Below, one piece after another: positions 1-40,734 of a stretch of DNA of 40,734 nt. Where the stretch lies: positions 1-40,734 of the IMG/VR virus record IMGVR_UViG_2718217713_000001. One strand, written 5' to 3'. Position 1 is the stretch's first letter; each line of letters begins with the position of its first letter. The stretch is from a virus. Its lineage: Duplodnaviria; Heunggongvirae; Uroviricota; Caudoviricetes. The notes beneath the pieces were generated by a model. That model saw only the letters and a list, made by a program, of their open reading frames with translations. It was not told the origin of the DNA and ran no database searches. The translations under genes and the position numbers were made by a program.

Positions 1-270
<270 letters not shown>

Positions 271-475
271 TTACCGTTAAATCATTTTAAAATCAGTAAG
301 TTGTATCGAGTTTATATGCTTTACTGTCATTAACTTACTGTATGTTGATCCAGTGTATTTAACCTTGATAAACTCAGTCCAGCAACACAAAACCGCAACA
401 CATTGCATTTTGTCCCGTAGAAAAGACTTGTATGTGTGAGCTTGTTTTCTGCGCCTACGCAGATAAGGATTGAGA

Positions 476-1873
476 ATGCCGCGCACTGTAACACATAATC
501 CGGATAGCCCCAATAATGACGATGTTTTAGCCGCATCTGAAAAATGGGACGCCTGTAAACCCCCCTATACCAGCGCACACATGAAAATCTGTGTTGCTGC
601 CGCCAAAATCATCCTCGCTGCTTCCGGTGTGGCTCGCCGTTCCAAATACGAAAAAGAGAACTATCTCCGTATCGATTTCAGCAAAGCCGGTAAGGTTACA
701 TTTTACGCCGAGTTTCCAAAAAAGATGGGCCTCAAAGGTAAAAAGCTCGGCGAGTGGCCGGAGCTCGCTATCCAGCTGGCGCGCGAAAAAGCACTAGGTA
801 TGGCTGACGGTGGACTGCGGGCAGAGTCCGTACATGCAGCGCTGGAAATGTACCGGGATGACCTCAAAGCCAAAGTAGCCCGGCAGAAGCTGAGCCCGGA
901 CAGTTTCACAACCTACGGGGTGCGTATCGACCGGATTAAAGCAACGTTCGGCGAGCGCGAGGTGTTCAGCGACGTAACATACAGTCGGCTGGTGGAAGTG
1001 CTGGACGAGTGGATCGCCACTCGCTCGAACAATAACGCCCTGGAGTTGTTTGCCGAACTCCGTCGGTTCTGGAAGTTCTGCGCACCTACTCTTTGCAACG
1101 GCCGCAATGTTGCCGCCAGTTTGCCAGATGATTATGTTTCCTCCCGCGTACAGAAACCCACCCCCACACGGCTTTTTACCGATATTGAATCAATCGCCCG
1201 ACTCTGGCTCAATGTTGCTGCCTGCACCTCTGTACACCAGAAGAATGCTGTTCGCTTCATGATCATCACTGGCGTTCGTCCGATTAATGTCCATAACCTG
1301 CGCTGGGACTACGTTCACGAGGAGGCTGGTGAAATTGTTTATCCGGAAGGGGTTATCGGCATGCGAGGGGCTATGAAAACACAAAAGGCTTTCCGCCTGC
1401 CGATAACGCCTGAGATCCGGCGGATTATCGACGAGCAGAAAGCCTGGCGTGATTCAGTTCCTGAGTGCAACAGGGATTATGTATTTTTGCAGCCACGTGA
1501 TCCAATGCAGCCATTTTCAAAACGATCACTGGATAAGCTGGTGAAAACATACAGCCCGGACGGGGCTGTAAAAGGAATAAAACATGATGGGACTGTTAAA
1601 GGGAAAGACGGTGCATTTAATACGATGTGCCGTAAATTCCTTAAGAGCAATGTTATTGCCTTGATGAAGGAAAGAGGCTATTCCCGATCAGACCGAAGGG
1701 AAATCAGCCTCCTTTGCCTTCACCACTCCAGCAAGTCAGATGACCCGATGGCAGAACATTACGACTTTTCTGATGAGATTTTACAGGAAGAGATTGCGTT
1801 AAAGCGCGAAGCTTTCGAGGCTCACGAGCGGAGCATACTTGCGCAGGTGGCATTGCTACGGCGGCGAGGTTAA
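476..1873 (+). CDS. int: Tyrosine-type site-specific integrase
   Basis: ORF track 470..1873 (467 aa); first ATG at 476 preceded by AAGGA (465..469); C-terminal region has the R/H/Y pattern of tyrosine recombinases (MCRKF, LCLHH, AEHYDF); position at prophage end next to a host gene. Confidence 0.8.
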   Translation: MPRTVTHNPDSPNNDDVLAASEKWDACKPPYTSAHMKICVAAAKIILAASGVARRSKYEKENYLRIDFSKAGKVTFYAEFPKKMGLKGKKLGEWPELAIQLAREKALGMADGGLRAESVHAALEMYRDDLKAKVARQKLSPDSFTTYGVRIDRIKATFGEREVFSDVTYSRLVEVLDEWIATRSNNNALELFAELRRFWKFCAPTLCNGRNVAASLPDDYVSSRVQKPTPTRLFTDIESIARLWLNVAACTSVHQKNAVRFMIITGVRPINVHNLRWDYVHEEAGEIVYPEGVIGMRGAMKTQKAFRLPITPEIRRIIDEQKAWRDSVPECNRDYVFLQPRDPMQPFSKRSLDKLVKTYSPDGAVKGIKHDGTVKGKDGAFNTMCRKFLKSNVIALMKERGYSRSDRREISLLCLHHSSKSDDPMAEHYDFSDEILQEEIALKREAFEAHERSILAQVALLRRRG

Positions 1874-2070
1874 TACTGGCTGCGACATTTTTGAATAAAA
1901 GCGTCGACATTTCGGCGCTCATAACGAACTACTTTTGCACTGAAACGAATTGGTGCCAGGATAGCCCGATGACGATGCTTAATATTCCACTCACATAGCG
2001 TTTTCTGTGTAATACCTAACTTTTGGCATACTTCATCCGGGGTGAGTAAATCGTCGGGTTTCTCGCTCAT
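1870..2070 (-). CDS. AlpA/excisionase-like HTH DNA-binding protein
   Basis: 66-aa ORF, HTH-like segment LTPDEVCQKLGITQKTLCEW; RBS GAGAGG upstream of ATG; start overlaps helicase stop (ATGA); convergent with int. Confidence 0.6.
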   Translation of the reverse strand: MSEKPDDLLTPDEVCQKLGITQKTLCEWNIKHRHRAILAPIRFSAKVVRYERRNVDAFIQKCRSQY

Positions 2071-3461
2071 GCTATACCTCTCTTTTTCATGGCATCGAGC
2101 AGGATGTCCTGCACTGTTCGTTTTGAGTTGCGCCGCTCCATCACCATTTCGTCCATAGTGTCGGCAGCAATAATGTGGTGAATAAATACCGGACGATTGT
2201 GTCCGGCCTGTATCTGTCTGGTTGGGCCGATACGTTCAATAATTTGCTGATACTGCTCCAGGTCCCACCAATGTGAGAAAAATACCAGTATGTTTCCGCC
2301 GTCCTGCATGTTCAGACCGTGGCCCGCGCTGGCTGGGTGTGCAAAGAGAACAGGAATCTTTCCGGAATTCCAGTCACGTAGTGTCTGTGGATCCTGGTCG
2401 AGGTGACGACCGCGAGGAAATGCTTTAAGCAAGCGTTCAAGATCGTGTTTCCAGTGATAAGCAACCAGCACAGGTGCGCCAGCTGCTTCGGTCAGTATGC
2501 TGTCCAGCGCCTGTAGTTTGGTGTCATGCAGTTCTGACCAACTTCCGGTGTCATCTGTGTATACTGCGCCGCTGGCGATTTGCAGACACTTCAGTGTCTT
2601 TGCCGCGGCGTTTGGTGCTTCGATGCCTTCGCCATTCAGCTCGAGGAACATTTCCTTTTCCATTTCACGATACTGCTGACGGGCCTTCGGCGGCATATCC
2701 ACGCGGATTACGTTATGGATGGGGTCTTTGATATCGAACCAGTCGGTCGCATCCAGCGAGAGGGTCACATCGGCTAACGCTCGCTGTATTTCACCCTGTG
2801 AGTGAGCAAAAGGCTCCAGTTTGGTCCAGCTCTGCCCCGGAAACTGTATCGATTTGAACCAGCGTGAGGTAAACGCGCCGTAAGTGCGCCCGAGACGTTG
2901 CCCCAGGTCCACAAACCACGATTGTCCCCACAAATCTACCAGGCCGTTCGGTGCTGGCGTACCGGTGAGATTTATCCAGCGCCGGACATACTTGTGCGCC
3001 ACTTTGCCCAGCGCCGCCGCGCGCTTACCACCACCTCGCAGCCGGAAGGATTTTAGCCGGGTGCTTTCATCTGGAATGACAGTACCGAACGGCCATCGTT
3101 CTCCCAATTCCTCAACCAGCCAGACAAGGTTATCGTAGTTGATGGTGAACACGCTCGCGTTGTTGTTCGCCAACGCTGCAGAGCGCGCTTTGGCATTACC
3201 AACAATTGATTGTACCTCGATATTGCGCAAATGCCCCCACTTCAGTGCTTCATCCGGCCATGTGCTGGCAGCCACGCGCAGCGGCGCGAGAACCAGCGCA
3301 GGTTGTGTTTCTGCACCCGCCATGAAGAGGTCTTCCAGCGTAGTGAGTGTCGCTACGGTTTTACCCATTCCCATACCCGCCCAGATGTTGCCGCGCAGAA
3401 TGTTAGTTTGGTGATTGATTATGAGGTTTTGATAAATTCTGGGGTGGAATATGCTATTCAT
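2067..3461 (-). CDS. SNF2-family (DEAD/DEAH-like) helicase
   Basis: 464 aa; Walker A GMGMGKT, motif II-like DESTRLK, C-terminal helicase domain; RBS AGGTG upstream. Confidence 0.8.
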   Translation of the reverse strand: MNSIFHPRIYQNLIINHQTNILRGNIWAGMGMGKTVATLTTLEDLFMAGAETQPALVLAPLRVAASTWPDEALKWGHLRNIEVQSIVGNAKARSAALANNNASVFTINYDNLVWLVEELGERWPFGTVIPDESTRLKSFRLRGGGKRAAALGKVAHKYVRRWINLTGTPAPNGLVDLWGQSWFVDLGQRLGRTYGAFTSRWFKSIQFPGQSWTKLEPFAHSQGEIQRALADVTLSLDATDWFDIKDPIHNVIRVDMPPKARQQYREMEKEMFLELNGEGIEAPNAAAKTLKCLQIASGAVYTDDTGSWSELHDTKLQALDSILTEAAGAPVLVAYHWKHDLERLLKAFPRGRHLDQDPQTLRDWNSGKIPVLFAHPASAGHGLNMQDGGNILVFFSHWWDLEQYQQIIERIGPTRQIQAGHNRPVFIHHIIAADTMDEMVMERRNSKRTVQDILLDAMKKRGIA

Positions 3462-3490
3462 TAATACACCTATGGTAGAATATGGTCACT

Positions 3491-3518
3491 TCTCTCTCTC
3501 TATATATATATATATATA
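3491..3518. repeat. Dinucleotide microsatellite (TC)5(TA)9 immediately upstream of the RBS of 3535..4332
   Basis: Direct reading: tctctctctc + 9 x ta, followed by ACTAACGGAGG and ATG at 3535. Confidence 0.9.
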
Positions 3519-3534
3519 ACTAACGGAGGCGGGT

Positions 3535-4332
3535 ATGCCCCTGGCGAAAATATTTACAAAGCAAGTTTCTTTATTAACTATGTTTTCAGCGTTAGCTTAT
3601 GCGATGGCATATTATTTTCAGAAAGGTGTCGCATCGTATTATGGCTATCCAGACCTTTTTATTAAAATAGACTTAAATACGCTATTGTATTCGGCTGTGT
3701 GGCTTTTGTTTTTTAGTTTTTTATTTCTCGGCGCCTTATATGCGGCGTTGATGTTTGATTTGAAAGGAAAATATTATGTTCCATTTATTGTATTTATAGT
3801 TGTTATGCTAATGGCTAATATTTGTATAATAGGATTTCATTGGCCTTTTGGTTATTTCTCCGAAACTTCTGTGATGAGTGTTCAGGATATTTTATTATTT
3901 GCTATGCTTTTGTTGAATTATCACAATGTGGTGTCTATGCCAATCCATAGTAAGAGACACGAACATCATATGGAGAGCATTAGAAAATTTGGGAGGCTTG
4001 CAGAGTATAAGAACGTATTTTATTATATCGATTTAAAAATCCTAAAGTCAGCTTTTCCTTTAGGGGTGATAACGTTGTTGATATTGAGCTATACATTCGG
4101 GAAGGTTACTGCATTTAAAAATAACGAATATTATATGGTAGATGGTAGTAATACTAAAGTGTTGCTCAATTCATTTGGTAGTGGTTTTGTTGTTGGTGAT
4201 TGTGAGTCAAATAGCGCAAAATTTGAATTTGTTAATGATTTAAAAGGGATGAGATTCACAATTATGTCCTCTAAAAAGGAAATAGCTAAATTAAAAGAGT
4301 GTTTCGAAATACGTGTTAAAAATACGGATTAA
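3535..4332 (+). CDS. AT-rich multi-pass membrane protein (moron, unknown function)
   Basis: 265-aa ORF with about 5 hydrophobic helices and a soluble C-terminal tail; strong RBS GGAGG; opposite orientation to flanking early genes; low GC compared with neighbours. Confidence 0.55.
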   Translation: MPLAKIFTKQVSLLTMFSALAYAMAYYFQKGVASYYGYPDLFIKIDLNTLLYSAVWLLFFSFLFLGALYAALMFDLKGKYYVPFIVFIVVMLMANICIIGFHWPFGYFSETSVMSVQDILLFAMLLLNYHNVVSMPIHSKRHEHHMESIRKFGRLAEYKNVFYYIDLKILKSAFPLGVITLLILSYTFGKVTAFKNNEYYMVDGSNTKVLLNSFGSGFVVGDCESNSAKFEFVNDLKGMRFTIMSSKKEIAKLKECFEIRVKNTD

Positions 4333-4344
4333 AGCATAAGTCTT

Positions 4345-4632
4345 TTATCCTTTATTGCGGCTTAAAATAATGGCTTCCAGATTTTTGCTATCCAGCACCA
4401 CTACGGTAAAGCCCAGCGCGCGCAACCGTCCGTGTTCGCGCAACTGGTCAGGCCGTGGTGGCTTGCCGGGGGATTTACATTCAACGAAAATGATACGACC
4501 GCCGGGTAGCAGAACAATGCGATCTGGTACCGAGCGGCGACCGGGGGATACGAACTTAAAGGCAACCCCGCCAGCCTTTTTTACTTCAGCGACGAGGTGC
4601 TTTTCGATTAGGTTTTCACGTTCATAGGCCAT
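4345..4632 (-). CDS. VRR-NUC domain nuclease
   Basis: 95 aa; PD-(D/E)xK-type motif PDRIVLL...FVECKSP typical of VRR-NUC; start overlaps upstream stop (TAATG). Confidence 0.8.
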   Translation of the reverse strand: MAYERENLIEKHLVAEVKKAGGVAFKFVSPGRRSVPDRIVLLPGGRIIFVECKSPGKPPRPDQLREHGRLRALGFTVVVLDSKNLEAIILSRNKG

Positions 4633-4826
4633 TAGCTTTCGCCTTCCTGCTTTTTGCGTTTCTTCATGCAGATAGCGCAGTTCTCAGGATGGTCATGCCA
4701 TTCATCAATCCTGATACCTATGAACATCCATTTTCCGCATAGTGATATGGCTTCCCCCGAATTAAAGAAATGTGCTTTTTTTGACAGAGCGGGGAACCCC
4801 CAACCCTTATTATCGATATTAGACAT
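4632..4826 (-). CDS. Hypothetical small protein (Cys/His-rich C-terminus)
   Basis: 64-aa ORF with strong RBS AAGGAGGTG; C-terminal WHDHPENCAICMKK; translationally coupled to VRR-NUC. Confidence 0.45.
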   Translation of the reverse strand: MSNIDNKGWGFPALSKKAHFFNSGEAISLCGKWMFIGIRIDEWHDHPENCAICMKKRKKQEGES

Positions 4827-5010
4827 CGTCCACCTCCTTACGCTTTTCGCGCATGTTCTGCATCAGACAAAAATCAAACCGACGTTCGCTTTGGCCCAGA
4901 CCTGCATCGCCCGGTCGTACCCGCCGGACTGTTCAAGGTGCAAAGCCTCCCGCACAGTCCGGTAATAAAGCGGACTGTCCCGGTATTTAAATGACATAGG
5001 GTTTTTATTC

Positions 5011-5036
5011 CCAAATAAAAAACCCCGCGATGCAGG
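5011..5036 (-). terminator. Intrinsic terminator downstream of the TIR-like gene
   Basis: On the minus strand CCCUGC-AUC-GCGGGG hairpin (one G-U pair) followed by UUUUUUAUUU. Confidence 0.55.
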
Positions 5037-5060
5037 GTTGTAATCAACAATAAGGGGTAA

Positions 5061-5822
5061 TTACGAGGAAGCGTTAGCTATTTGAGCTTGTGTAAATTCG
5101 AAACCAGAATTTTGTAACCGTTGCACTAGACGAGGAACTGTTTCACGTACATGGTCGTTGAAATTCAGATACAAAATCCCGTTAGCATCAGAAGGCTGTT
5201 CTAGGTGCTGTTTCTGAAGGATTGCTACATTGCTGCGCCCTAAGGACGAAAGAAGCATACCCATCTCGAGTACAACGTTCTGTCTTGCGCGGGGTTGGAT
5301 TTCTGCTTCACCGGCGCGCTTTGAGTATCCCATATCATCAGGTGTCAAAAGAACAATCCCGAAACGGGTAGCAGTTTGTCCTTGCCCAATTTCACGTTCA
5401 AGCTCTTCAATAATGGTGAGTCCAGTCCCTCCCGTATTCTGCAAAATGAAATGGTCTGGTAATCCAAGTTTATGAAGGATTAGCTCAAGTTGCTCCTTTG
5501 CAGTATGGTCATGGCCGTGAACAATGAATATCTTTTTGGGGAGCTCAGATGGCTGTTCTACGGCTAGTGGTGTTGCCGTGGGCGGCGTTCCTAAATGGGT
5601 CATTATTGCAGTTTCAACATTGGGACGTTCTTGAGGGTTACCTTGAAACTGAATGGTCCGGGTGGTGTAAAGGTTAACAATTACGCCATTCGTTAAACGA
5701 TAGCAGTCACAAGTCTCACGCTGTTCGTGGGAAAAATTGGTGAACCCACACTCCCCCAAAAAGTCAGGAAAAGATTCTCTCGGGTATGGATAGGTGATCG
5801 GCATTTCAGTTAGTTCCTGCAT
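5061..5822 (-). CDS. TIR-like (COG4271/PF10137-type) domain protein with unknown N-terminal domain
   Basis: 253 aa; C-terminal about 150 aa carries motifs KIFIVHGHD, GIVLLTPDD, ARQNVVLEMG...LGR that I recall for the bacterial TIR-like nucleotide-binding family; N-terminal about 95 aa unrecognised; RBS AAAGGA upstream. Confidence 0.55.
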   Translation of the reverse strand: MQELTEMPITYPYPRESFPDFLGECGFTNFSHEQRETCDCYRLTNGVIVNLYTTRTIQFQGNPQERPNVETAIMTHLGTPPTATPLAVEQPSELPKKIFIVHGHDHTAKEQLELILHKLGLPDHFILQNTGGTGLTIIEELEREIGQGQTATRFGIVLLTPDDMGYSKRAGEAEIQPRARQNVVLEMGMLLSSLGRSNVAILQKQHLEQPSDANGILYLNFNDHVRETVPRLVQRLQNSGFEFTQAQIANASS

Positions 5823-5886
5823 AAGTATTGTTCCTTTAATTTACTCGAATTCAGCATGTCGCCATAGCTCGATAAGGTGAGTTATA

Positions 5887-7950
5887 TCAATCTTTTTTGT
5901 AGTGGTACGCCTCAAAACCGCCAGCGTTCAGTGGGATATCGGGCGCCCATTCGGGGTCAGTGGAGAGAAGCGCGGAAAGCGCTTTATCGTTGAAATCTTC
6001 TGTGTCAGGTGCTTCGGTGATCACCTCGTCGTGTACCGTCAGCACAATGCTGTAACCGGCATCTTCGATAAGCGGCATGTTTCCGGCCAGAATGTCGCGG
6101 GCGGCCGCCTGGGTGATGTTCTCCACCAGCTTTCCGCCGTAGGTTTTGAGTCGTTGCCATTTACGCGAATAAGAGTTAACCCCCATGTAGGTGATATTCC
6201 CTTTTTCGATAACCGGAGACGGGTAGCATACAGCGCGTCCTGATGGTAGCTGTATGCGCAGCCACGCGCCATCGCGGCGGATTTTAAGATAACCGCAATA
6301 CAATGTTTTTTGCGGTGTGGCGATTGCAGTGCGGACGGTGCGCTCCAGTTCGTACCAGAAATCACAGGTCGCGGGATGCGCCCGGCGCCAGAGACGTTTA
6401 AGTGAGTCGCAGGCGATAAATACCCGTTCAGAAAGCCCGTAGGTTGACTTGCGTTTAACCGATTCGTCGTACCAGCTTTTCGCCTCGTGGATAACATCGC
6501 GGGGAATGTTTGGTAGTGCGGCGTTCGCCAGCTCGTCGAGATCGAGACCGTAAACCAGTGCAAAAGTGATGAAGGCCGACACACCACCACCATAACCCAG
6601 ACCGAGTTCCATGACTTTACCGATCTGACGCATGTGTTTATCAACATCATCTGGTGCAATATCGAAAGCTTTTGCATACGCCAGTTTATATAAGTCCGGA
6701 CCCGTTCCGGCGTCGTACTCTCTGAATGCATTCAGTTTCCATTCTTCTCCCGCCAGCCATGCCAGCATACGGCCTTCAATGTTCGACAAGTCACTTACCA
6801 CCAGCTTTTTGCCTGTTGGCGCGATAATGCAGCCACGTAACGCTGAACTGGTTAGTTCCATGATATTGTCAAACAGCAGGTCTGCACATCCGGCTTTCAG
6901 TGCTTCGATGCCTTCGTCTATTTGTTCCTGTTTTAGTGAAGGGCGGGGAAGGTTCTGGGGCTGGAATAGCCGTCCGGCCCAACGACCGGTACGTGACGCC
7001 CCGCAGAACTGTAGCGTACCGCGTAAGCGCCCGTCGTGGCTTACGCCTTTCATCAGTGCCTTGTATTTACTGGTGCTGGTAGTACTGGCCTGCAGGCGGA
7101 TAGCCAGCAGTTCTTTCACGGCAGATGGTAAATCGGGGTCGGCAATACGACGTTCCAGAGTACTGCGTTGCATGTCTGGTAGCTCCACACCGTAGGATTC
7201 AACAATGTGCTTAATCAACGCGTCTCGTTGTGTGGCTGCCTGCACTTCGCCATCAGTCATTTCCTGTGTACGCTTTGCCAGGCGCTTTTGTTCCTGGTCT
7301 ACCGCGTCGATCGCAGCGCGTGCGAGTTCCACGTCCATGCAGACGCCCCGGTCATTGATCTGCTGATCACGATGCCAGAGCGTCAGTTCTGTCCCCTGAT
7401 AATTCCACTTCGGCAGACGTTTATAGACTTCGCGCATTGCCTCGATATCCAGTCCGGCGTAAGCAACAAAGCGCCGCCATTCTTCCGGGTGGGTTTTGCT
7501 GGTGGCACGGCGCAGTTTGCTGTTTTTCGGGCGGGGCTTACAGAACAGCTGGATCAGCGCTTTACCTTCTTTGTCCTTCGCTTTGTCTTGCGGGACGCCT
7601 AGTACTTCGCAGAGTTCCCCCAGAGACCCCGGGAGACCGTGCGCCAGCGCCTGCACCATTGTGTCGCGCCAACGTTCGACTGGCGGTGCCAGGCGCGGCA
7701 TTGCATAACGCAGGACGGTGCGGTCGAAGTGAGAGTTATGGAAATAAAGCAGGGTTTCAGGGTCTGCGATTGCTTCGTATAAGCCGTGTGGAATACCACC
7801 ACCGGCAGTGATATCCCACACGTTTACGGGCCCGTCGTTGATAGCCCATGCGAACAGCATCACTTCAACGCCTTCGGCATACGCATGGGTACCGTTCGTA
7901 ATAGGGATTTCGCAATAGGTTTCTAGGTCACCCCATAGTATATTGGACAT
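5887..7950 (-). CDS. Family A DNA polymerase (T7-like, with 3'-5' exonuclease domain)
   Basis: 687 aa; motif [14 protein letters not shown], motif [17 protein letters not shown], motif C VHDEV; N-terminal exonuclease-like region. Confidence 0.9.
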
Positions 7951-8006
7951 AAAATAACCTTGTGTGATATATGGTTATGTAGGCGTAAATAAACAAGGAG
8001 ACGGCG

Positions 8007-8276
8007 GTGTTTAGCTTTGGTATCGGAATACTTTCATTGATAGGTATTATTGCTTTCCCCATTCTTTATATTTTAGGGAGAATAGTTCGGGCTGGTGGCG
8101 CATGGCTCGAACGTGAAGAAGGTCCTAAGGATCGTGTTCTTCCCAAAATTATAATTTTTGCGCTTATTGGGTTCTTTCTTGGGTGTTTGGCTCAGCCTGT
8201 ATGGGACAGCATTTCGGCATGTAGAGACTATGGCAATCCAATAGGGAAATGTCTTTTTAAATTCAATGAATTTTAA
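8007..8276 (+). CDS. Small AT-rich membrane protein (moron, unknown function)
   Basis: 89-aa ORF, GTG start 8 nt after AGGAG, two hydrophobic helices; opposite strand to the replication operon. Confidence 0.45.
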   Translation: MFSFGIGILSLIGIIAFPILYILGRIVRAGGAWLEREEGPKDRVLPKIIIFALIGFFLGCLAQPVWDSISACRDYGNPIGKCLFKFNEF

Positions 8277-8343
8277 TTTTTAGTATTGCGGTAGGCTGGT
8301 TTGGATAACTATTTTCTTAAGCCAGCCTTTGTTATAAGAAATA

Positions 8344-8982
8344 TTAAGCATCTACCCCTTCGTCAGAAGGGAGGCCGATCATTTCGTTGAGAGTTTCGCG
8401 TCGTATAGCTGGCGGAAGCGGAGCAGATGGTGCATCGGCTGGCAGAAGTTCTTTAGCTTCAGGCCACTCTTCCAGCAGGCGCTTAACTGTGCGCACTTTA
8501 CTGAGTGCAGCGCTGACATTCTGTCGAATGTCTGACTCATCGCTCTGTATCTGCTCATAAAGTGCATCAAACCCGTAAAACTCTGTAACTAGAGGGTCAT
8601 TTGCCAGAAGGGTAAATTCCCCCGGCGCGATTTTGTGAATATGGTCTGGTGACCCTGATTCATATCCTCGATAGTTACCGTTGAAATAGACGGTAACCCG
8701 AGAACCTGCCAGATTCAGACACATGTAACACTCTTTCCTGATAATATTATTGGCGGTTTTTAATGCTTCGGGGAATTTTGATACCAGTGTTTCTATTTTT
8801 TTTATAATTTTTAATATTTCAGCTTCTTTCTCTACGCCCCCGATAGCTGCAAGCCGAACACGTTCGGCCCATTCAACACGAGCAGCTCGTAGTGCTGATT
8901 TACGTTTGGGGATACCCGCTTTCTCAAGTGCGTTATTGATGATTTGAGTTTTAAGGTGATTAGTTAATACGGGCTGTGACAT
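8344..8982 (-). CDS. Hypothetical phage protein
   Basis: ORF track 8344..8997; internal ATG at 8982 has the better RBS (GAGGGAAAG); no recognisable motif. Confidence 0.55.
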   Translation of the reverse strand: MSQPVLTNHLKTQIINNALEKAGIPKRKSALRAARVEWAERVRLAAIGGVEKEAEILKIIKKIETLVSKFPEALKTANNIIRKECYMCLNLAGSRVTVYFNGNYRGYESGSPDHIHKIAPGEFTLLANDPLVTEFYGFDALYEQIQSDESDIRQNVSAALSKVRTVKRLLEEWPEAKELLPADAPSAPLPPAIRRETLNEMIGLPSDEGVDA

Positions 8983-9034
8983 TATTCTTTCCCTCATGAG
9001 ATACCCCCAGCACGTAGCTGGGGGATGAATATTT

Positions 9035-9583
9035 TTAAATTAGTGCTTCAGCATCAGCACCTTCGCTGATATCGTCGAAATCGTCAGCGCTTGCCACTCC
9101 GCCGCCAGCGAATGCATCGCCGTCTCGCAGGAACTGGACTCCGCCGAGTGAGGCATTAATGCGTTTACCGAAATTATTGTCCTGTGCCCAGATATCGATA
9201 ACGGCGTTTACATAGCACCCTGCATAGGGACGTCCGTCAGCCTGAATAAGTGGCGAACGATCGCGATCAAGAACAGCTGGGCGCGCTTTGTTAGCAGCAT
9301 TCAGGAAGAAATTACCGGGGAAGCCTTCATACTCTGCTTTTTCATCACCATCATGCAGGCACAGATTGAGTTTTTTCTCCAGCTGGTTATAAATGGGCTC
9401 CCACTTCTCTCCCCATTTTTCCTTCGCTACCTGCTTCATAGCTTTACGGATTTCTTCCAGTTGTGGGTGTTTGGGTGACATTAAAAATACTGCGGAGAAA
9501 CGTGGATCGCCTTCGCCGTTTACAGTTTTAGCTTCAAACAGAGACGGGAAGGCCAGACGAACATTGTTCAGCTTCAGTTTCAT
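9035..9583 (-). CDS. DUF2815-family phage protein (putative ssDNA-binding protein)
   Basis: 182 aa starting MKLKLNNVRLAFPSLFEAK, typical of the DUF2815 family that accompanies phage family-A polymerases; RBS AAGGA. Confidence 0.7.
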   Translation of the reverse strand: MKLKLNNVRLAFPSLFEAKTVNGEGDPRFSAVFLMSPKHPQLEEIRKAMKQVAKEKWGEKWEPIYNQLEKKLNLCLHDGDEKAEYEGFPGNFFLNAANKARPAVLDRDRSPLIQADGRPYAGCYVNAVIDIWAQDNNFGKRINASLGGVQFLRDGDAFAGGGVASADDFDDISEGADAEALI

Positions 9584-9598
9584 GGGTATTTCCTTAAA

Positions 9599-10900
9599 TC
9601 AGATGAGGTCTGCGGTTAGCGTATCGTCGGATACGTCGTCGAAATCATTTATAGGGTTGATATTGAGTGCGGGGCGTGGGTCTGACTCGGGAACGACGGT
9701 GGGTTTACCATCAGCTCGTGTTATCAGTGCCTCGACTTTTGACCAACGGCGCGGACTGGCCTTTTTGATAAGTTTTTCGGCTTTTGTGGGGCTAATAAGT
9801 TTAAAGTCGAATACTTCTTCAGTTTTGTACCTGAACTGGTCCTTCAGAAGTGCGCGAGCTGCCTCTTCATCACTCCAGGCCCGGTTACCTTGTTTTCCTG
9901 TTACCAGTTTAAACCCCGGTACCGGATGTCCGGCATTGAGTTCATTGTGAACCCGGTCTCGTACTGCCTTTAGCCAGGATTCAATAAAGTCGGCCTGGCT
10001 ATAGATCTCCGCAAGCTGCTCAATGGTTAACAGAGGTACACGTGCGCTGGCATTGGTGATTATTTCGCTGACAGGCTTTGTCAGATCTTCAAAATCGCTG
10101 GCCGCTGTTTGTAAATGCTGCATTTTCTGGGCAGTGCAAATAGCTTTTGCTTTACAGAAGCGGCACTGTTTTTCTCCAGGTATGAAGTTTTCCAGCGGTA
10201 GTGTCTCAATGCCTTCGCATTCAGCAATATTGAGAACAAGGATCGCACTGGTTGCGGCCTCCTGTGCCCGTTCACCGAAAGACTGAAGTTCCTGTACGGT
10301 TAACGACCATTCTGAAACGTGGTTGAGCCTTGGCTGGTGAATAAATAATCTTACAGTCTCAAAGTCATACAGCATGCTGAATTGTTCGAGTGCACCCAGG
10401 GCATACAGTTGTAGTTGCTCATTTTGTTCTGCATCAATGCGGACGCCTTTGCCATATTTCAGGTCGTGGATTTGTAATTCGTTACCAGCGATGATTATGC
10501 CGTCGGCAGTTCCGAAAGATTCTTCCACACCCGTTATATGTGAGAAATCAACACGTTGTTCAACCAATAGTTCATTATTCTGTGCAAGAGTCCAGACCGT
10601 ATCAACATACCGGCCAACGGCTTCGACCATTTCATCATCCACCTGTGGGCCAGATGTATCATCAGGATTTTCGCGAAGGGGGTATGAGCCGAGAAACATA
10701 GAAACATTGCATCCGGCGTAGTGTTCCGGGTGGCTTTGCCTGTTTCGTAGAACTTTTTCAGCAAGCGCGTGCGCTGCAGTGCCCTCGATTGCAAAAGTTG
10801 TTTCTTTATCCGGTTGTGTGGCCTCCAGCGCCAGACTTCCTGGGCAGCGCATCCATCGATGCGCTGATGATGGAGAAAGTTGTGCGTGAACGTCTGGCAT
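9599..10900 (-). CDS. DUF2800-family PD-(D/E)xK nuclease (Cas4-like)
   Basis: 433 aa with N-terminal [14 protein letters not shown] motif and Cys cluster ([10 protein letters not shown]); RBS GGAGGG. Confidence 0.75.
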
Positions 10901-10902
10901 GA

Positions 10903-11805
10903 TTAACCCTCCAGTGCTTTTTCAGCCAGGGTGATTACTTCAGCGAGATTTTCATCCGTTACTTCACCAAGTTTCCTGGCTCCCTGTTTTTCCAGAATTG
11001 CAATAGCTTCTGCCCGGTAGCCCCCTTTTGCTAACTGGAGGATCAACCCTTCAGCTTGTTTGCGTAGTGCCGCGAAATCAATTGTATGGTCATCTTTGGC
11101 GTCATGATTCTGGCTGGAATTTGCTGCGTCTCTGCGTGCAAATTCTTCCTGCAGCTGAAGGTACTCAACACGGTTGATCTCGATATGGCCTTTTTTAAGC
11201 ATCTCGTTCAACTTGCGTAAGGTGTGGAGTTCACTGGCTGCTGTGCCGGATACATTTTTGACGTAAAACGGCCCCGTGCGTTCTCCATCTTTGTCACTGG
11301 CCTTTTTCGGCTTAACTTCATCACGCCCATCTGCAGGTGCATCAAGTAGCTGCTCGGCAAAAGCGCGTCGCTCGCCGATGGTTGGCAGGTCGTCCCAGAA
11401 CTTAAGAATGTTACGGGACAGGTCCAGGAGAGCAGGTTTAAGCAGCGCCCTGGCTCGTTTGACGCCCTGCAATGCGCTGTCGAGAGCATCAATCTGAACT
11501 ACTCGTTTATCGCCTTCAGCATCACGGTAGGCAACAGCACGTTGCAGCATATCTTCTGTGATAGGGGTGGCTACCGGGTAGAAACCAGCCAGTGCGATAA
11601 CGTCGCTGAACTCCAGATCATCCAGTGTCATTGCCGCTGACATATTTTCAGTTTCAGTTGCTGTATCCCGACATTCCTGCACTCGTGAAATTGTGTCAGG
11701 ATGCATAACAATACCTGATGCCATTGTGCGGATAAGACGTTCAAGCAGCGCATTATGTTGTGCCAGAAGTTGATTATTAAGTTCTAGACTGGTTTCTAAA
11801 CTCAT
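10903..11805 (-). CDS. Hypothetical phage protein (acidic, 300 aa)
   Basis: ORF with RBS GAGGA, tightly packed in the early-left operon. Confidence 0.55.
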
Positions 11806-13404: not shown

Positions 13405-13587
13405 ATGAAAAAAGCAGAAGCAATTGAGCTTGCAGGAAGTAAAGCGAAACTAGCGAGACTATTGAAGGTTTCCAAAGGCGCCGTATCTCAATGGGGGGAG
13501 GAAATCCCAGAGCTAAGAGCTCTTCAACTTGAAAAGATTTTGGAGCAAAAAAATGTAGTCAAACAAAAAGGCGTAACCCATGTCTGA
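13405..13587 (+). CDS. Cro-like HTH regulator
   Basis: 60 aa, HTH (KAKLARLLKVSKGAVSQW), first gene rightward of the switch; stop overlaps the next gene. Confidence 0.65.
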   Translation: MKKAEAIELAGSKAKLARLLKVSKGAVSQWGEEIPELRALQLEKILEQKNVVKQKGVTHV

Positions 13588-15841
13588 TAACAAACCATGG
13601 GGAGCTACGCCCGATGAGTGGTTCCACTTCGATCTGGTGTTGGGGATGACAGACAGGCTTTTACCTGTGGTGTCCAATCCCTGTGCAGAACTGTCGCCTA
13701 ATAGCAAGCTGTCTCATAATTTCGGCAAAACCCCCAGTCGCTACAATGGCCAACGTAAGGTTGTTGGTATCCCCGACTGGGCTAACTATGTTGTTACGGA
13801 AAACGATTTTGCCCGGTGGTCGAACGAACCCGATTACGGTATTTGCGTTCGTACTGGCGACGGGGTGGTGGCTCTGGACTGCGATATCAATGACGCCGGG
13901 ATGCAGGAGATCGTACGCAATATTATCCTATCATGCCTGGGGGAACTTCCGCCACGTCGCTGGCGGGCTGACAGTCATAAATGCCTGTACCTGATTGCTG
14001 TTGATGGCGACTACCGTAAACGTGGTCACCGCCTGGAAGGCGAAAACAAACAAATAGAGCTGCTCGCTAAGGGCCAGCAGTTTGTGGCTTGTGGTACCCA
14101 TCCGGCAGGCGAACGTATTCAGTGGGACTGCGGTTTGCCCGGCGAACCTCTGAAAATTACATCTGAACAGCTCGAAAGCCTGTGGCAGCGTCTGGCGGAT
14201 AACTTACCCGTGAAAGACAGCTATACCGCAGGTGCAGGACGTCAGCGTGACCTTTCCTGTGTTGATCCTTCCGCGACAGATGATGTCGCCGACTGGCTTG
14301 ACGCGAACGGGTGGACTCTGTCAGTCAGCTCTGATGGTTCCCGCAATCTGAAACCGTTTCGGGATGAGTCAGAATACAGCAACGGTTGCAGCGAAACATC
14401 CATTAAGTATTTCCCAAAAGGGACGGGGGGATTTGAACAGGGACATTTTAAAAGCATGCACAACACCGATGCGGGGCTTACTGATGCCGACTGGCTGGAA
14501 GGCTACGGCTATACGCAATCCCTGTTCGAAGATCTCACGGTGGTTGAAGATGGCGATAAGCCTGAATTTACCGATATTAATACAGATATGACAGCTCATT
14601 TTCTGGAACGCTTTATCTACGTTATCGAGGGTGACCAGGTATGTGATCTTAGCCGACCGCCATATCAGTGCATGATGGATATGAAGTCGTTCAAAAACCT
14701 GATGGCGCCTTACCAGTTCCCGCCAGAAGGGAAAGGGCAACCAACTCCCGCAACCAAACGGTGGATAGAGCATCGGCATAAGAAGATTGCTGAGACGACA
14801 GGCTATAAGCCCGGTGCGGGACGTATTATCGAGCGTTTCGACGGGCGGTTTGAGATAAACGAATTTTATATGCCTGAGCATCCACGTACAGCGGATACAA
14901 GTAAGGTGTCCACGTTCCTTAATCATATGGCGTATCTGGTACCTGATGCCTGGCAGCGCGAGTTTTTCATCGCCCGTCTGGGGTGGATGGTTCAGCGTCC
15001 GGAGCGTCGATGCCCGATTTCTATTCTGCATGTGGCTACCGCACATGGTACGGGCAGAGGATGGGTCAGTCAGTTAATGGAGCGCGTGCTTGGCCCGTGG
15101 AACTGTGCTCGTACTCGCATGAAGATCCTGTGCGATAACCAGTTCCATGACTATCTGTACAATACGCTTCTATGCACCATTGACGAGGTGCGCGAAAATG
15201 ATAAGCGGTATGAGGTGAACGATAAGATCCGTGACGTGCTGACAGAACCACGGTTTGAAGTGAACCGCAAATATGGCAGCAAAAAAACGATGGATATATA
15301 CACCGGCTTTCTGTTCTACACCAACCACTTTGATGCGCTGGCGCTGCCAGAGGAAGACCGACGTATAGCTGTGCTGGGGGGCCCTGACTTCGCCGCAACT
15401 GAAGAGCATTACGCCAGCCTGTACGGTGCGCTAAGCGACAGCGACTTTATCGCCCAGGTGTACTGGTATCTAATGGGCGTTGACCTGTCTCGCTTTAACT
15501 GGCAGCGCGCCCCCGAGACGAAAGAACGCCTTCTGATGATTGAAAGCAATAAGAGCGATGTGGAGGCTGCTCTTATTGAAATCCTGGATAATCCGCCTGT
15601 GCCAGCAATGACTTATCAACAAATTGTTAACGCAATACTGGCAGAAGCAGGAATGGATGTAGAAATTAACCAGAAGCATATTACTCGCATTTTGAAAGAA
15701 AGAACAAAACGTGAAGCAGTGAAACTAAAAGTGGACGGCATGACTGTTCGCATGTGGATGCTTGCAAAAAATTGCGACTTCAATAATGAGGAATTGCGTG
15801 AAATATATAAAACATGCGAAATTTTGCAATCTGGATTGTAA
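13580..15841 (+). CDS. Replication initiation protein with N-terminal primase-polymerase (AEP-like) domain
   Basis: 753 aa; DxD-type motif VVALDCDIND and downstream His-containing motif; no canonical Walker A seen in the C-terminal part; immediately followed by the iteron array. Confidence 0.65.
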   Translation: MSDNKPWGATPDEWFHFDLVLGMTDRLLPVVSNPCAELSPNSKLSHNFGKTPSRYNGQRKVVGIPDWANYVVTENDFARWSNEPDYGICVRTGDGVVALDCDINDAGMQEIVRNIILSCLGELPPRRWRADSHKCLYLIAVDGDYRKRGHRLEGENKQIELLAKGQQFVACGTHPAGERIQWDCGLPGEPLKITSEQLESLWQRLADNLPVKDSYTAGAGRQRDLSCVDPSATDDVADWLDANGWTLSVSSDGSRNLKPFRDESEYSNGCSETSIKYFPKGTGGFEQGHFKSMHNTDAGLTDADWLEGYGYTQSLFEDLTVVEDGDKPEFTDINTDMTAHFLERFIYVIEGDQVCDLSRPPYQCMMDMKSFKNLMAPYQFPPEGKGQPTPATKRWIEHRHKKIAETTGYKPGAGRIIERFDGRFEINEFYMPEHPRTADTSKVSTFLNHMAYLVPDAWQREFFIARLGWMVQRPERRCPISILHVATAHGTGRGWVSQLMERVLGPWNCARTRMKILCDNQFHDYLYNTLLCTIDEVRENDKRYEVNDKIRDVLTEPRFEVNRKYGSKKTMDIYTGFLFYTNHFDALALPEEDRRIAVLGGPDFAATEEHYASLYGALSDSDFIAQVYWYLMGVDLSRFNWQRAPETKERLLMIESNKSDVEAALIEILDNPPVPAMTYQQIVNAILAEAGMDVEINQKHITRILKERTKREAVKLKVDGMTVRMWMLAKNCDFNNEELREIYKTCEILQSGL

Positions 15842-37042: not shown

Positions 37043-37708
37043 ATGCATCGTATAGACACGAAAACCGCGCAGAAGGATAAGTTCGGCGCGGGTAAGAACG
37101 GTTTTACCCGTGGTAACCCCCAGACCGGCACGCCTGCCACCGATCTGGATGATGACTACTTTGACATGTTGCAGGAGGAGCTTTGCAGCGTTGTGGAGGC
37201 ATCCGGTGCCAGCCTGGAGAAGGGGCGGCATGACCAGCTGCTTACCGCGCTTCGTGCGCTGCTGTTAAGCCGCAAGAATCCGTTTGGCGATATCAAATCG
37301 GATGGCACGGTGAAAACAGCTCTCGAAAACCTTGGTTTGGGAGAAGCGGCAAAACTTGGCGCTGCTGTAGGGGTAACGGGTAATACCGGGAGAATATTGA
37401 TCCCGGCTTTAATTGGTGGGGTTGAACAAAATATCATTTTCCAGTGGGTCTCTGGATTTCTTTCCGATTCGACTGGAGTAGCAACCGTGACATTACCTAT
37501 GGCATTTCCTAACGCTCTGTTTCATGCCACTGCGATTGACTCAGGTGCTTCTGCTAGCTCGTGGAATGGATCGGCCGGCACAACGTGGGGCTTCGATATT
37601 GGTGGCTCTACCAGAACGACAGTCAAAGTTCGTGTTTTAAGAACAACTAATGGGACTTCATGGGCGGGTGCTTCAGCTGCCGGTTGTTTATTCGCAATAG
37701 GTTATTAA
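37043..37708 (+). CDS. Side tail fibre protein (constant N-terminus + invertible C-terminus)
   Basis: 221 aa; crossover site lies inside the gene at 37320..37345, so the C-terminal part is encoded within the invertible segment. Confidence 0.7.
37320..37345. other. Left DNA-invertase crossover site (hix/gix-like)
   Basis: CTCTCGAAAACC-TT-GGTTTGGGAGAA; resembles the Hin/Gin site GAAAACC..GGTTT; mirrored by the site at 38922..38947. Confidence 0.6.
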
Positions 37709-37709
37709 C

Positions 37710-38126
37710 ATGAAAACAAGATACTTTTATGACGCCGTTGATAACGGATTTTATATTGAACCTGAAAGCAGGTTTATTCCTGAATCAGCTATTGAAATCA
37801 GTGTTAACCTCTACAACCAATTTGCTGGTATTGCCTGGCCTGAAGGTAAAATGCTTGGTGCAGATAGCACTGGACTGCCCGCTTGGGTCGATGCGCCGCC
37901 TCCAACGCATGAAGAGCAAATAGCGGCGGCAGAACAATATCGCCAGCAACGGCTACAGCAGATTGACGAAGTAACCGCCGACTGGCGGGTTGAATTAATG
38001 CTCGGCGATATAAGTGACGAGGATAAAGCGAAATTGTCTGAGTGGATGGCGCATAAAAAAGCGGTGAAAGCCGTCGATACGTCAACGGCCCCTGATGTCA
38101 TCTGGCCTGAACAGCCGGAGGCGTAG
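37710..38126 (+). CDS. Tail fibre assembly protein
   Basis: 138 aa, follows tail fibre; shares the PAWVDAPPPTHEE motif with the inverted alternate copy. Confidence 0.75.
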   Translation: MKTRYFYDAVDNGFYIEPESRFIPESAIEISVNLYNQFAGIAWPEGKMLGADSTGLPAWVDAPPPTHEEQIAAAEQYRQQRLQQIDEVTADWRVELMLGDISDEDKAKLSEWMAHKKAVKAVDTSTAPDVIWPEQPEA

Positions 38127-38541
38127 GCCATTCAATATCTGGCGCACCGGAAGTATCAACCAGTTCCAGTGCGTCCAGATAATCCAGCCACAAATTATAT
38201 TGCGCCAGTTCGTCACCTTTCAGACGACCAATAGCGGCTTTACCGGGCCATTGTTTACTGTTCATGTATTCGTTGGCCTGGTTAATTAGTAGCTGTCTTT
38301 CTGATTCAGTAATTTCAATAAGCTCTTCATGCGTGGGTGGAGGAATATCAGCCCACGCAGGCAGCGCATCATCTCCGGCAATACGGACTTTTCCTTGTGG
38401 CGGTTCAGCCATAAACTCACTGACAATATTTTGATTCACTTCTTTCACATCTGATAAATCCCATCCCTCTGATTTATATTTATCAATCATATCCACAGGG
38501 AAAAAAGCATTATGTCTGGCACTATAAACATATTTGTTCAT
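38098..38541 (-). CDS. Alternate tail fibre assembly protein (inverted orientation)
   Basis: ORF track 38098..38583; ATG at 38541 after AGGGTGA; PAWADIPPPTHEE motif. Confidence 0.7.
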   Translation of the reverse strand: MNKYVYSARHNAFFPVDMIDKYKSEGWDLSDVKEVNQNIVSEFMAEPPQGKVRIAGDDALPAWADIPPPTHEELIEITESERQLLINQANEYMNSKQWPGKAAIGRLKGDELAQYNLWLDYLDALELVDTSGAPDIEWPTPPAVQAR

Positions 38542-38561
38542 ATAAATCACCCTGAATAAAA

Positions 38562-38933
38562 TTACTCGCCAACAGCCCACCAACAGTAATTCATGGTAAC
38601 AGTTGGACTTGTCGAGGTTGTTCTAAAGGCAGAATAAAACCCTGTTAACCCTGGCTCTTCAGTTGTCATCATAAAACCACGACCACTCCCGGCAGTTGAA
38701 CCACCATCACCAGAATGTGAAAGCAAGGCAATATCAGCTTTTTTAGGGAAAGGTATATTAAATTCTACCCGTAGTGTCTGACTCGCAAGCGTAGGAGACA
38801 CACGCCCACGACCATATTGCAGGATTTTCCCGTTGGGTAATTTCATCCATCCATCACCACTGGCAAAAGAGGCCATGTCCGGTATCTGATTTTCCCCTGT
38901 TCCCACATTTCGTTTCGCCGCTTCTCCCAAACC
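38562..38933 (-). CDS. Alternate tail-fibre C-terminal segment (start-less, expressed only after inversion)
   Basis: Minus-strand reading frame open from the right crossover site; encodes LGEAAK... matching the junction of the plus-strand fibre gene. Confidence 0.55.
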
Positions 38934-38947
38934 AACGTTTATGAAAA
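38922..38947. other. Right DNA-invertase crossover site (inverted copy)
   Basis: TTCTCCCAAACC-AA-CGTTTATGAAAA; left half is the reverse complement of the right half of the 37320..37345 site. Confidence 0.6.
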
Positions 38948-39001
38948 TGCAGAAATAACGAGCAAATGGCATCATTCCTGCTTTTGTCAGGGAGATCTAC
39001 C

Positions 39002-39316
39002 ATGCTTATTGGCTATGTACGTGTGTCAACAAATGACCAGAACACCGATCTGCAACGTAATGCACTGAACTGCGCGGGATGTGAGCGGATTTTTGAGGAT
39101 ACAATCAGTGGCACTAAGTCCGACAGACCAGGGCTGAAAAAACTGCTCAGGACATTATCGGCAGGTGACACTCTGGTTGTCTGGAAGCTGGATCGGCTGG
39201 GGCGCAGTATGCGGCATCTTGTCGTGCTGGTGGAGGAGTTGCGCGAACAAGGTGTTAACTTTAGTAGTTATGTTATTACAGGTGGGGGATTTCTCCCCCT
39301 TATGCAGATTTTCTAG
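39002..39316 (+). pseudogene. pin: Serine DNA invertase Pin/Gin/Hin family, 3'-truncated after about codon 86
   Basis: MLIGYVRVSTNDQNTDLQRNAL...GDTLVVWKLDRLGRSM matches the invertase N-terminus; similarity stops after ...GVNF and the frame ends 18 codons later; a full invertase is about 185-190 aa. Confidence 0.7.
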
Positions 39317-39320
39317 TTAA

Positions 39321-40166
39321 CTATTGGCGAAGTGGCCATATTTTTCTGTTTTTTAAAAAACTATCTCCAACTATATAACTGCAACAATGTTCACTAAGGC
39401 CATAAAAACTAATTATTCCATATTTATGAGAAGCTATATCAGACAGTTCTGCTAATACTGTGGCAAGCCAACGAGCGATGCTAAGAGAATAGAATCTTCC
39501 CCATTTTTGAACAATGGTATTTTGTCCAGTACGGATGGAGGCTGATATAAGGTCTTGCATCATGTTGGTACTTTCATTCATATACATGATCGTTGTATAC
39601 GGCGAAAGAGTGGCATTGATAAACCTAGCATTTTCTTCAACACGTCTTTGTTCAACTGTATAATAATAATGTTTTTCAAGGATACTCTCGGCTACTTCTC
39701 CCCACCATTTATTAATAGGTTCATTATTGGTTAAATTGGGGCTGCTTAATGAAGAGAAATTTGCGTAACGTCCCCGTCGGGCATCAGCAAAGGAATCTAA
39801 ACATTCAAGTATTTTGTAGGTGATTTTATGTGTAGGACGTGAATATCTCAGAGATAGTTGCATTTTTTTAGAAATACTATCAACCTCGTTGGTTAATTCA
39901 ATGAGCTTATGTCCAAATTTTCTTACAATATTCTCGTCAGGCATTTTTCCTTTATGTTCAATGGCATAGTGTGCAACAAGTATTAGTTTAGCAAGTCTCT
40001 CAAAACCTACAGAAAGCCCAAAAAATGCAGTGTAATACTCACCTATTTTGTCTGCATAATTGGCTTTACCTATGGCTGTTGCCCCAGAACCAATGAGCTG
40101 TGTAACTAAAGATGCTTCTCGGCCCAGAGCGTGCCATGCTGGAATATCCCAGGGATTTTTATTCAC
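39321..40166 (-). CDS. AT-rich hypothetical protein (cargo downstream of truncated pin)
   Basis: 281-aa ORF, GTG start with AAAGGA upstream; low GC; no motif firmly recognised (one R-x5-H stretch, RYSRPTH). Confidence 0.5.
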   Translation of the reverse strand: MNKNPWDIPAWHALGREASLVTQLIGSGATAIGKANYADKIGEYYTAFFGLSVGFERLAKLILVAHYAIEHKGKMPDENIVRKFGHKLIELTNEVDSISKKMQLSLRYSRPTHKITYKILECLDSFADARRGRYANFSSLSSPNLTNNEPINKWWGEVAESILEKHYYYTVEQRRVEENARFINATLSPYTTIMYMNESTNMMQDLISASIRTGQNTIVQKWGRFYSLSIARWLATVLAELSDIASHKYGIISFYGLSEHCCSYIVGDSFLKNRKIWPLRQ

Positions 40167-40293
40167 TTTATTATTTTCCTTTGCTCATAAATTTAAATTG
40201 TTTGAGTATCTCATAAAATATAAGGAGGTGGTTAAGGTTGTTGATCGCATATAATAGCTATTGAAAGTCAAGAACTCGGTTTTATGTTCTACC

Positions 40294-40334
40294 ACTAATT
40301 AATATATTGTGAATCTTACAATATATTAATTAGT
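40294..40334. repeat. Perfect 17-bp inverted repeat with 7-nt spacer
   Basis: ACTAATTAATATATTGT-gaatctt-ACAATATATTAATTAGT read directly. Confidence 0.9.
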
Positions 40335-40467
40335 ATGATCAAACCAGCCATCAACTGATTCCTTGTATCTTTCAGAGTCTCCAGAATAAAAGCCTTAACG
40401 AATTCCTTATTTGTGAGTGCCTTACAAAAAGCCCATTGTTGCAGGGAACGAGTATAAAACTCGTCAG

Positions 40468-40734
40468 CTACTGGAGAAGGCTACCTGAACTTCGATCTAT
40501 TCCTGCATCCATATAGTTGATGGTCTTCTGGAGCTCTTCGATTAGGGCAACAGCTTTTGCTCGAGAAATGCATATTAGGTGATCCGGAAATTCTTGTAAG
40601 GGCCAGTTTGGTATACAGGCCATGTTATCAGTGAAGGATGCAGACAAGTAAACTTCATTGGTAACCAGAGAATAGCTTACCTCAAAATTGGTGAGCTCCG
40701 GCAAACTGCTAACGTTTGACTCTTTTCTGCGCAT
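40468..40734 (-). CDS. Hypothetical protein (88 aa; start codon at the window edge)
   Basis: Minus-strand ORF whose ATG is the last three bases of the window; true start could lie further upstream outside the window. Confidence 0.35.
   Translation of the reverse strand: MRRKESNVSSLPELTNFEVSYSLVTNEVYLSASFTDNMACIPNWPLQEFPDHLICISRAKAVALIEELQKTINYMDAGIDRSSGSLLQ

Follow-up and report, generated by a model that had tools for sequence, protein, structure and literature searches.

The right end of a prophage in E. coli strain C10 carries a Pin/Gin-type invertible tail-fibre switch of the P-segment type that has lost its own invertase, and genome comparisons indicate that the switch has nonetheless been inverted after this loss in at least two lineages. 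We consider it probable that this orphan switch is flipped in trans by the serine invertases of other prophages. In the mechanism we propose, the constant N-terminus of the fibre would be joined across a 26-bp site to one of two C-termini, each with its own chaperone. The invertase of the element would have been destroyed once, by a cassette swap after codon 89 that brought in an AT-rich module with a HEPN-like gene. The cis elements would have survived this event, with both crossover sites intact and the first 267 bp of pin retained, and related serine invertases of co-resident prophages would flip the segment in trans, the candidates in C10 being an intact PinQ and one further PinE-type gene.

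The window, by which we mean the whole stretch of 40,734 bases that was analysed, is 100% identical to the genome of E. coli C10, a strain from cattle (NZ_CP010132.1 4489726-4530459, reverse strand). It is almost wholly a single prophage of the SfV/e14 family, integrated between yfhL and yfhH. From its left end the prophage encodes a tyrosine integrase and a replication and modification module, followed by lambda-like regulators, lysis genes, an HK97-type head and a Mu-like contractile tail, with the invertible fibre segment forming the right end and ymfQ lying upstream of that segment. An 18-bp direct repeat, TTCACACATATCACAATT, is found at 214-231 of the window and again 206 bp past the window end, and is probably the attachment core. 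The structural genes are ~97% identical to those of the Shigella phages SfII, SfI, SfIV and SfV, and this likeness stops at 37354-37355, that is, at the left crossover site. The features of the invertible segment are as follows.

37043-37708, + strand: expressed tail-fibre gene, an open reading frame of 221 aa with Gp53-like_C at residues 131-221
37320-37345, inside the fibre gene: left 26-bp site of the hix/gix/pix type, the reverse complement of which reads TTCTCCCAAACC AA GGTTTTCGAGAG
37710-38126, + strand: tail-fibre assembly (chaperone) gene, partner of the expressed fibre end (Caudo_TAP, E = 4e-32)
38098-38541, − strand: alternative gene for tail-fibre assembly, silent as the segment lies in C10 (Caudo_TAP, E = 3e-30)
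38562-38935, − strand: alternative fibre C-terminal cassette (Gp53-like_C, E = 2e-9)
38922-38947: right 26-bp crossover site, TTCTCCCAAACC AA CGTTTATGAAAA

The two ends of the segment form an inverted repeat of 29 nt (37327-37355 and 38912-38940) that is 93% complementary. A 19-nt core, TTCTCCCAAACCAASGTTT, has exactly two copies in the window, one on each strand (37327-37345 and 38922-38940), and 0 occurrences in 100 shuffles of the window, which bears out the pair of inverted hix/gix-like 26-bp sites proposed in an earlier note on this DNA. Both sites are imperfect palindromes of ~26 bp that lie in inverted orientation and have in common the core and a central dinucleotide, which reads TT on the left (37332-37333) and AA on the right (38934-38935). 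We take the two sites to agree with the hix/gix consensus. The crossover repeat also matches the published repeat of the e14 P segment, TTGGTTTGGGAGAAGG (PMC12529663), at 15 of 16 bases.

The expressed fibre gene, which PGAP labels a gp53-like domain protein, spans the left site, such that a constant N-terminal part (37043 to ~37333) is joined to a variable C-terminus (~37334-37708). The alternative fibre end is held in an open reading frame on the − strand (38562-38975; Pfam, Gp53-like_C) and is without an N-terminus of its own in the C10 orientation. In strain C11, the constant part reads in frame into this alternative cassette, yielding a 220-aa protein (WP_073505851.1), and the alternative assembly protein (WP_073488353.1) sits on the expressed strand. 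Either orientation therefore yields a complete in-frame fibre gene. Two Gp53-like_C ends and two Caudo_TAP genes are thus found in a mirror arrangement by Pfam, as expected from the ~1.6-kb segment with two alternative fibre C-termini and two assembly genes that had been described from the sequence. Beyond the right site lie the remains of the invertase gene and the DNA that replaced the rest of it.

39002-39268, + strand: pin′ stub, codons 1-89 of a serine invertase gene of the Pin/Gin type (Pfam; alignments with Gin and PinE)
39024-39086, inside the stub: candidate Fis-bound recombinational enhancer (geometry and a crude motif scan)
39269-39316, + strand: read-through codons that are unrelated to pin, then the stop; the replacement DNA begins here and alignments lose all similarity
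39270-40452: AT-rich replacement cassette of ~1.18 kb, GC ~40% (comparison with strain DEC5B)
39321-40166, − strand: uncharacterised 281-aa cassette gene with a putative HEPN-like fold
40468-40734, − strand: conserved 88-aa gene of the right prophage end (phrog_17793, E = 2e-44)

The stub reading frame runs from an ATG at 39002 to a stop at 39314-39316 and comprises 104 codons, of which 89 are Pin codons and 15 are unrelated. Its residues 3-89 match the Resolvase N-terminal model of Pfam over positions 2-98 of 145 only, and in alignments it covers residues 1-88 of Gin (193-residue structure; E = 1e-43) and residues 1-89 of the full-length, 184-residue PinE. PinE-type genes are 90-93% identical to the stub at the nucleotide level, and the similarity to pinE ends abruptly at 39268/39269, with unrelated AT-rich DNA beyond. 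A tblastn search with full-length PinE found the C-terminal half of pin nowhere in the window, so that the small serine recombinase adjacent to the switch consists of residues 1-89 only, and PGAP calls the gene a pseudogene 'missing C-terminus'. The reported end of the invertase frame after about 104 codons is therefore real, although homology to full-length invertases already ends after codon 89. The additional claim that the catalytic and DNA-binding half is missing is right for the second part and not for the first. The last part of the catalytic domain is gone from the stub, as are oligomerisation helix E and the C-terminal domain that binds DNA through a helix-turn-helix, but the N-terminal catalytic core with the nucleophile region VRVSTNDQ (the active-site serine region) is kept. 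Because the DNA-binding domain and the oligomerisation helix are missing, the stub protein is predicted to be inactive, as it should neither bind DNA nor form a tetramer.

Of 5426 complete E. coli genomes, 43-44 have the identical stub junction, with yfhH next to it in every case, so it is neither a sequencing error nor private to C10. An error or frameshift concealing a full-length invertase that is really encoded is a general possibility for any such gene, and we found nothing specific in its support. The presence of one junction in 44 independently sequenced complete genomes, the abrupt change to unrelated DNA after codon 89 and the lack of any trace of the pin 3′ half downstream or elsewhere in the window make it exceedingly improbable, and the full-length frame that the earlier note thought might emerge on error correction does not exist in this DNA. 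Instead, the truncation can be traced to a replacement. An intact-type locus in the O55:H7 strain DEC5B, at the same site, has a full-length pinE, a 215-aa gene, the 88-aa gene and yfhH. Apart from pin up to 39268 and the final 282 bp of the window (40453-40734), the window has nothing in common with this locus, so the cassette replaced the pin 3′ half together with the neighbouring 215-aa gene. The 88-aa gene, which is annotated in DEC5B, is common to the intact-pin and truncated-pin loci, with 99% identity over the 282 bp. The 281-aa protein of the cassette had no matches in Pfam, PADLOC, PHROGs or NCBIfam, and its gene is a possible candidate for a defence gene. Three records labelled as phages also carry the stub; they also contain yfhH, yfhB and tadA, which are host genes, and are therefore predicted prophage regions and not packaged genomes, and we rejected them as virion evidence.

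The segment differs in orientation between genomes that carry the same stub. A second cattle strain, C11, carries this prophage at an unchanged position, its stub is 100% identical to that of C10 over 264 bp, and its two chaperone genes and fibre ends lie on the opposite strands. When the C10 segment is inverted in silico, there are 0 other differences from C11 in 1741 bp, and the breakpoint intervals (37332-37351 on the left and 38916-38935 on the right) each include the centre of the 26-bp site. The host flank of the two strains is identical (100%) over 2.9 kb, a region in which an unrelated strain differs at many positions, indicating that C10 and C11 are close relatives and that the flip was recent. 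In addition, an ST38-type lineage has the same stub attached to a quite distinct tail module, whose baseplate is of the DUF2612 type. Here 18 genomes have the segment one way (100% identical) and 3 have it flipped (with the fixed side 100% identical). The pair L003 and L005 from this lineage encodes the same Tfa proteins on opposite strands and is related by an exact inversion: once one segment is inverted in silico, 0 differences remain in 2040 bp, and the breakpoint interval is 16 bp long and centred on the sites, where the perfect repeat is only ~16 bp long. A perfect repeat of ~16 bp falls below the minimal homology length for efficient RecA-dependent recombination, so site-specific recombination is the economical explanation. 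Genome comparison thus reveals exact inversions at the site centre in two lineages and indicates that inversion occurred after the truncation in both, and the earlier headline that the switch is probably locked is not supported. Continued flipping in present-day C10 is a prediction from this comparison between genomes.

Two other accounts of these orientation differences have to be weighed. Assemblers report a single orientation for a mixed population, and the differences could in principle reflect an assembly artefact or a choice of consensus. However, reads are much longer than a repeat of 29 bp, so that no mis-join is expected, and both states have annotated in-frame fibre genes in two independent lineages sequenced by many laboratories. 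Mixed cultures would themselves prove active flipping, and we regard an artefact as very improbable. A somewhat stronger alternative, which we still consider unlikely, is that the switch is locked in C10 and that the orientation differences are relics, left either by RecA recombination between the short inverted repeats or by the import, through recombination, of a segment already flipped in another phage with a functional invertase. The invertase of C10 is certainly dead, and 18 of the 21 genomes of the second lineage have one orientation. The stub module has recombined onto at least two different tail modules, and the 5′ part of the stub is more diverged between the lineages than the adjacent cassette (the L003-type stub is absent among the matches with at least 91.7% identity to the C10 stub, and the cassette is 97.8% identical), indicating that recombination in this region does occur. 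Moreover, deletion of pinE in K-12 leaves the P segment locked despite a chromosomal pinQ (PMC12529663). Against this account, both pairs have 0 residual differences and a breakpoint interval of 16-20 bp that contains the site centre, which is the signature of site-specific recombination, an imported segment would require a donor identical at every other base, and in the second lineage RecA would have had only the ~16-bp perfect repeat to act on. The K-12 result also counts against flipping in trans in C10, in that native PinQ levels may be too low without induction. The complete deletion of pinE probably also removed the recombinational enhancer, which, if the 5′ part of pin does supply that enhancer, might be the reason for the lock despite pinQ.

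Flipping in trans requires a source of enzyme, and the search of the rest of the genome for other invertases that had been proposed points to two candidates in C10. Gin, Cin, Pin and Hin cross-complement in trans. C10 encodes a pinQ (NZ_CP010132.1 3399280-3399870) that is annotated as intact within a Qin-like lambdoid prophage, and its product is identical to K-12 PinQ at 194 of 196 residues. For the K-12 enzyme, experiments have demonstrated inversion of the e14 P segment in trans (PMC12529663). We counted further candidate loci as matching places per genome, using queries anchored with C10-specific sequence and, for the pin 3′ half, chimeric queries that joined the anchor to this half. The pin 5′ half has 3 matching places in C10 and also 3 in C11, and those in C10 are the stub, a pinH fragment near ssrA and one further locus. 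The pin 3′ half has one other matching place in each of the two strains, and the further locus therefore carries both halves. This PinE-type locus is recognised by match counts and could be a pseudogene. The locus next to ssrA was rejected as a source, as it holds only a pinH fragment (residues 41-96), and so was e14, since C10 is without e14 at icd.

One or more further chromosomal matches of the PinE or PinQ type are present in 31 of the 44 stub carriers and absent in 13, in which the segment may be fixed. Within the ST38-type lineage, a further PinE- or PinQ-type match is present in 3 of 3 flipped genomes and in 9 of 18 unflipped genomes, a difference that is not significant in this small and phylogenetically non-independent sample (hand-calculated Fisher test, ~0.17). 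The distribution of candidates is therefore consistent with the trans model without reaching significance. With pinQ and the PinE-type locus present in C10, this is not a case of both orientations occurring in the absence of any other invertase, and the earlier suggestion that switching would depend on a trans-acting enzyme is favoured over a lock by the intact pinQ of C10 and by the flips that followed the truncation. Which enzyme flips the segment, and how often, are matters of inference.

Wild-type enzymes of this family also depend on a Fis-bound enhancer in cis, which in hin, gin and cin sits within the 5′ coding part of the gene. The Hin enhancer is 65 bp long, is bound by Fis, lies ~100 bp from a hix site (PMC3798978, PMC4817059) and is needed in cis (PMC3798978). 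The corresponding position in C10, ~39030-39100, falls inside the retained 267 bp of pin. A crude motif scan of this coding-constrained DNA found a pair of Fis-like 15-mers at a spacing of 48 bp, of which the first has its centre 96.5 bp from that of the right site. This geometry, together with the scan, hints that the stub may supply the Fis enhancer of the switch.

A bolder, speculative reading, to which we give limited credence, is that the 267-bp stub has been kept for its Fis enhancer and the adjacent site, and that the switch is enslaved to the invertases of other prophages, such as PinQ. One section of the 2025 paper on PinQ is headed 'T2 induces pinQ expression', and an adsorption-blocking chimeric Stf protein has been described for e14 (PMC12529663). 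If the switch were enslaved, the choice of fibre variant, or the production of an adsorption-blocking chimeric Stf, would be coupled to the signals of another mobile element, and the event that orphaned the switch would also have placed a HEPN-like candidate defence gene beside the invertase slot. The C10 locus is also a natural system in which to ask whether an invertase gene keeps its 5′ part on account of the enhancer. Irrespective of that reading, flipping in trans would correct the tempting habit of annotating a switch as frozen when its invertase is dead, as an inverton can stay active through cross-talk, and predictions of host range and surface proteins should weigh both orientations and all invertases of the cell. 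The locus is otherwise of modest interest, as a case in which cis elements have been naturally separated from their enzyme, with a HEPN-like cassette as the cause.

The system belongs to a textbook family as an orphaned member, and the action of one prophage's invertase on another prophage has already been published (Kirigo et al., NAR 2025, PMC12529663), with both PinQ of Qin and PinR of Rac inverting the e14 P segment. In that K-12 example, the target e14 retains its own PinE, whereas the target in C10 is an orphan. The organization of the C10 switch is otherwise that of the e14 P segment and PinE, with a constant N-terminus, a site, a variable end with Tfa, an inverted Tfa′ with end′ and a second site, and with pin outside the segment after the second crossover site. 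It differs from e14 in that the invertase is cut after codon 89 and in that the switch belongs to a 40.7-kb prophage between yfhL and yfhH with complete SfV-type structural genes, while e14 is a 15-kb remnant at icd. The Mu G/Gin, P1 C/Cin and Salmonella H/Hin systems likewise pair a small serine invertase with sites that are imperfect palindromes of 26 bp, and the 5′ portion of their invertase genes contains a Fis enhancer; however, each of them encodes its own full-length enzyme and the C10 segment does not. We found no earlier description of an orphan fibre switch with a truncated invertase in a literature search at the level of titles and abstracts. Decay of the invertase itself is common among E. 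coli Pin genes, as in pinH, a fragment of which is also present in C10, and strain 23AR1101 has a 98% identical segment beside a pinE with an internal stop. These decayed genes are isolated fragments or carry point mutations, whereas the C10 stub arose by cassette replacement and is still attached to a complete switch.

The two ends of the prophage in strain C10 are probably marked by a short direct repeat. It is listed here with further features of the window and of the C10 chromosome:

214-231, with a second copy 206 bp past the window end (10041-10058 of record L001): 18-bp direct repeat TTCACACATATCACAATT
About 2067-11805: replication and modification module, on the basis of PGAP annotation
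5061-5822, minus strand: gene for a TIR domain-containing protein of 253 aa, in the early region, adjoining the DNA polymerase gene
40294-40334: perfect 17-bp inverted repeat, arms ACTAATTAATATATTGT and ACAATATATTAATTAGT, spacer 7 bp
C10 chromosome 4591522-4591689 (13522-13689 of record L010): pinH-type invertase fragment, residues 41-96 only

The direct repeat is probably the attL/attR core, and the pin' stub (the first 89 codons of a Pin/Gin-type invertase followed by 15 unrelated codons), the AT-rich replacement cassette and the conserved right-end gene of 88 aa would therefore all lie inside the prophage.

The same 104-codon stub is found in other records. ON470588.1 ("Escherichia phage vB_EcoM-611R5"), where it is annotated as a "DNA invertase", was filed as a complete phage genome; the record also takes in host sequence (yfhH, yfhB and tadA) and is a predicted prophage region, not a packaged genome. 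In strain 97-3250 the stub adjoins the invertible segment of alternative fibre ends and Tfa chaperones, and at the position expected for the second chaperone and fibre end (2989-3556 of record L006) PGAP annotates only hypothetical proteins of 65 and 127 aa. The silent half of the segment looks decayed in this lineage, whose copy may be truly fixed.

Strain 23AR1101 carries an invertible segment that is 98% identical to that of the window and encodes the same Tfa and fibre-end proteins (2644-5157 of record L007). Here the host element is a prophage adjoining ssrA, and the full-length pinE beside the segment has an internal stop, a second, independent route of decay for the invertase of the same segment. 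The C10 genome itself holds a further relic of the invertase family to which the stub belongs, the pinH-type fragment, which lies between ypjA and ypjC, near ssrA.

The inverted repeat is located between the 281-aa HEPN-like gene of the cassette and the 88-aa gene, and its appearance suggests an operator or a regulatory site lacking a terminator. Both arms are also found, with an altered spacer, at the ST38-type locus, a second prophage lineage with the same stub and a different tail module.

In the early region, the TIR protein gene may be a defence gene carried by the prophage or may code for an NADase. The surrounding module encodes a DEAD/DEAH helicase, a VRR-NUC protein, DUF2815 and DUF2800 proteins, a family A-like DNA polymerase of 687 aa, and an Nmad5 "nucleotide modification" protein, a gene content that hints at DNA base modification and is unusual among SfV-type phages.
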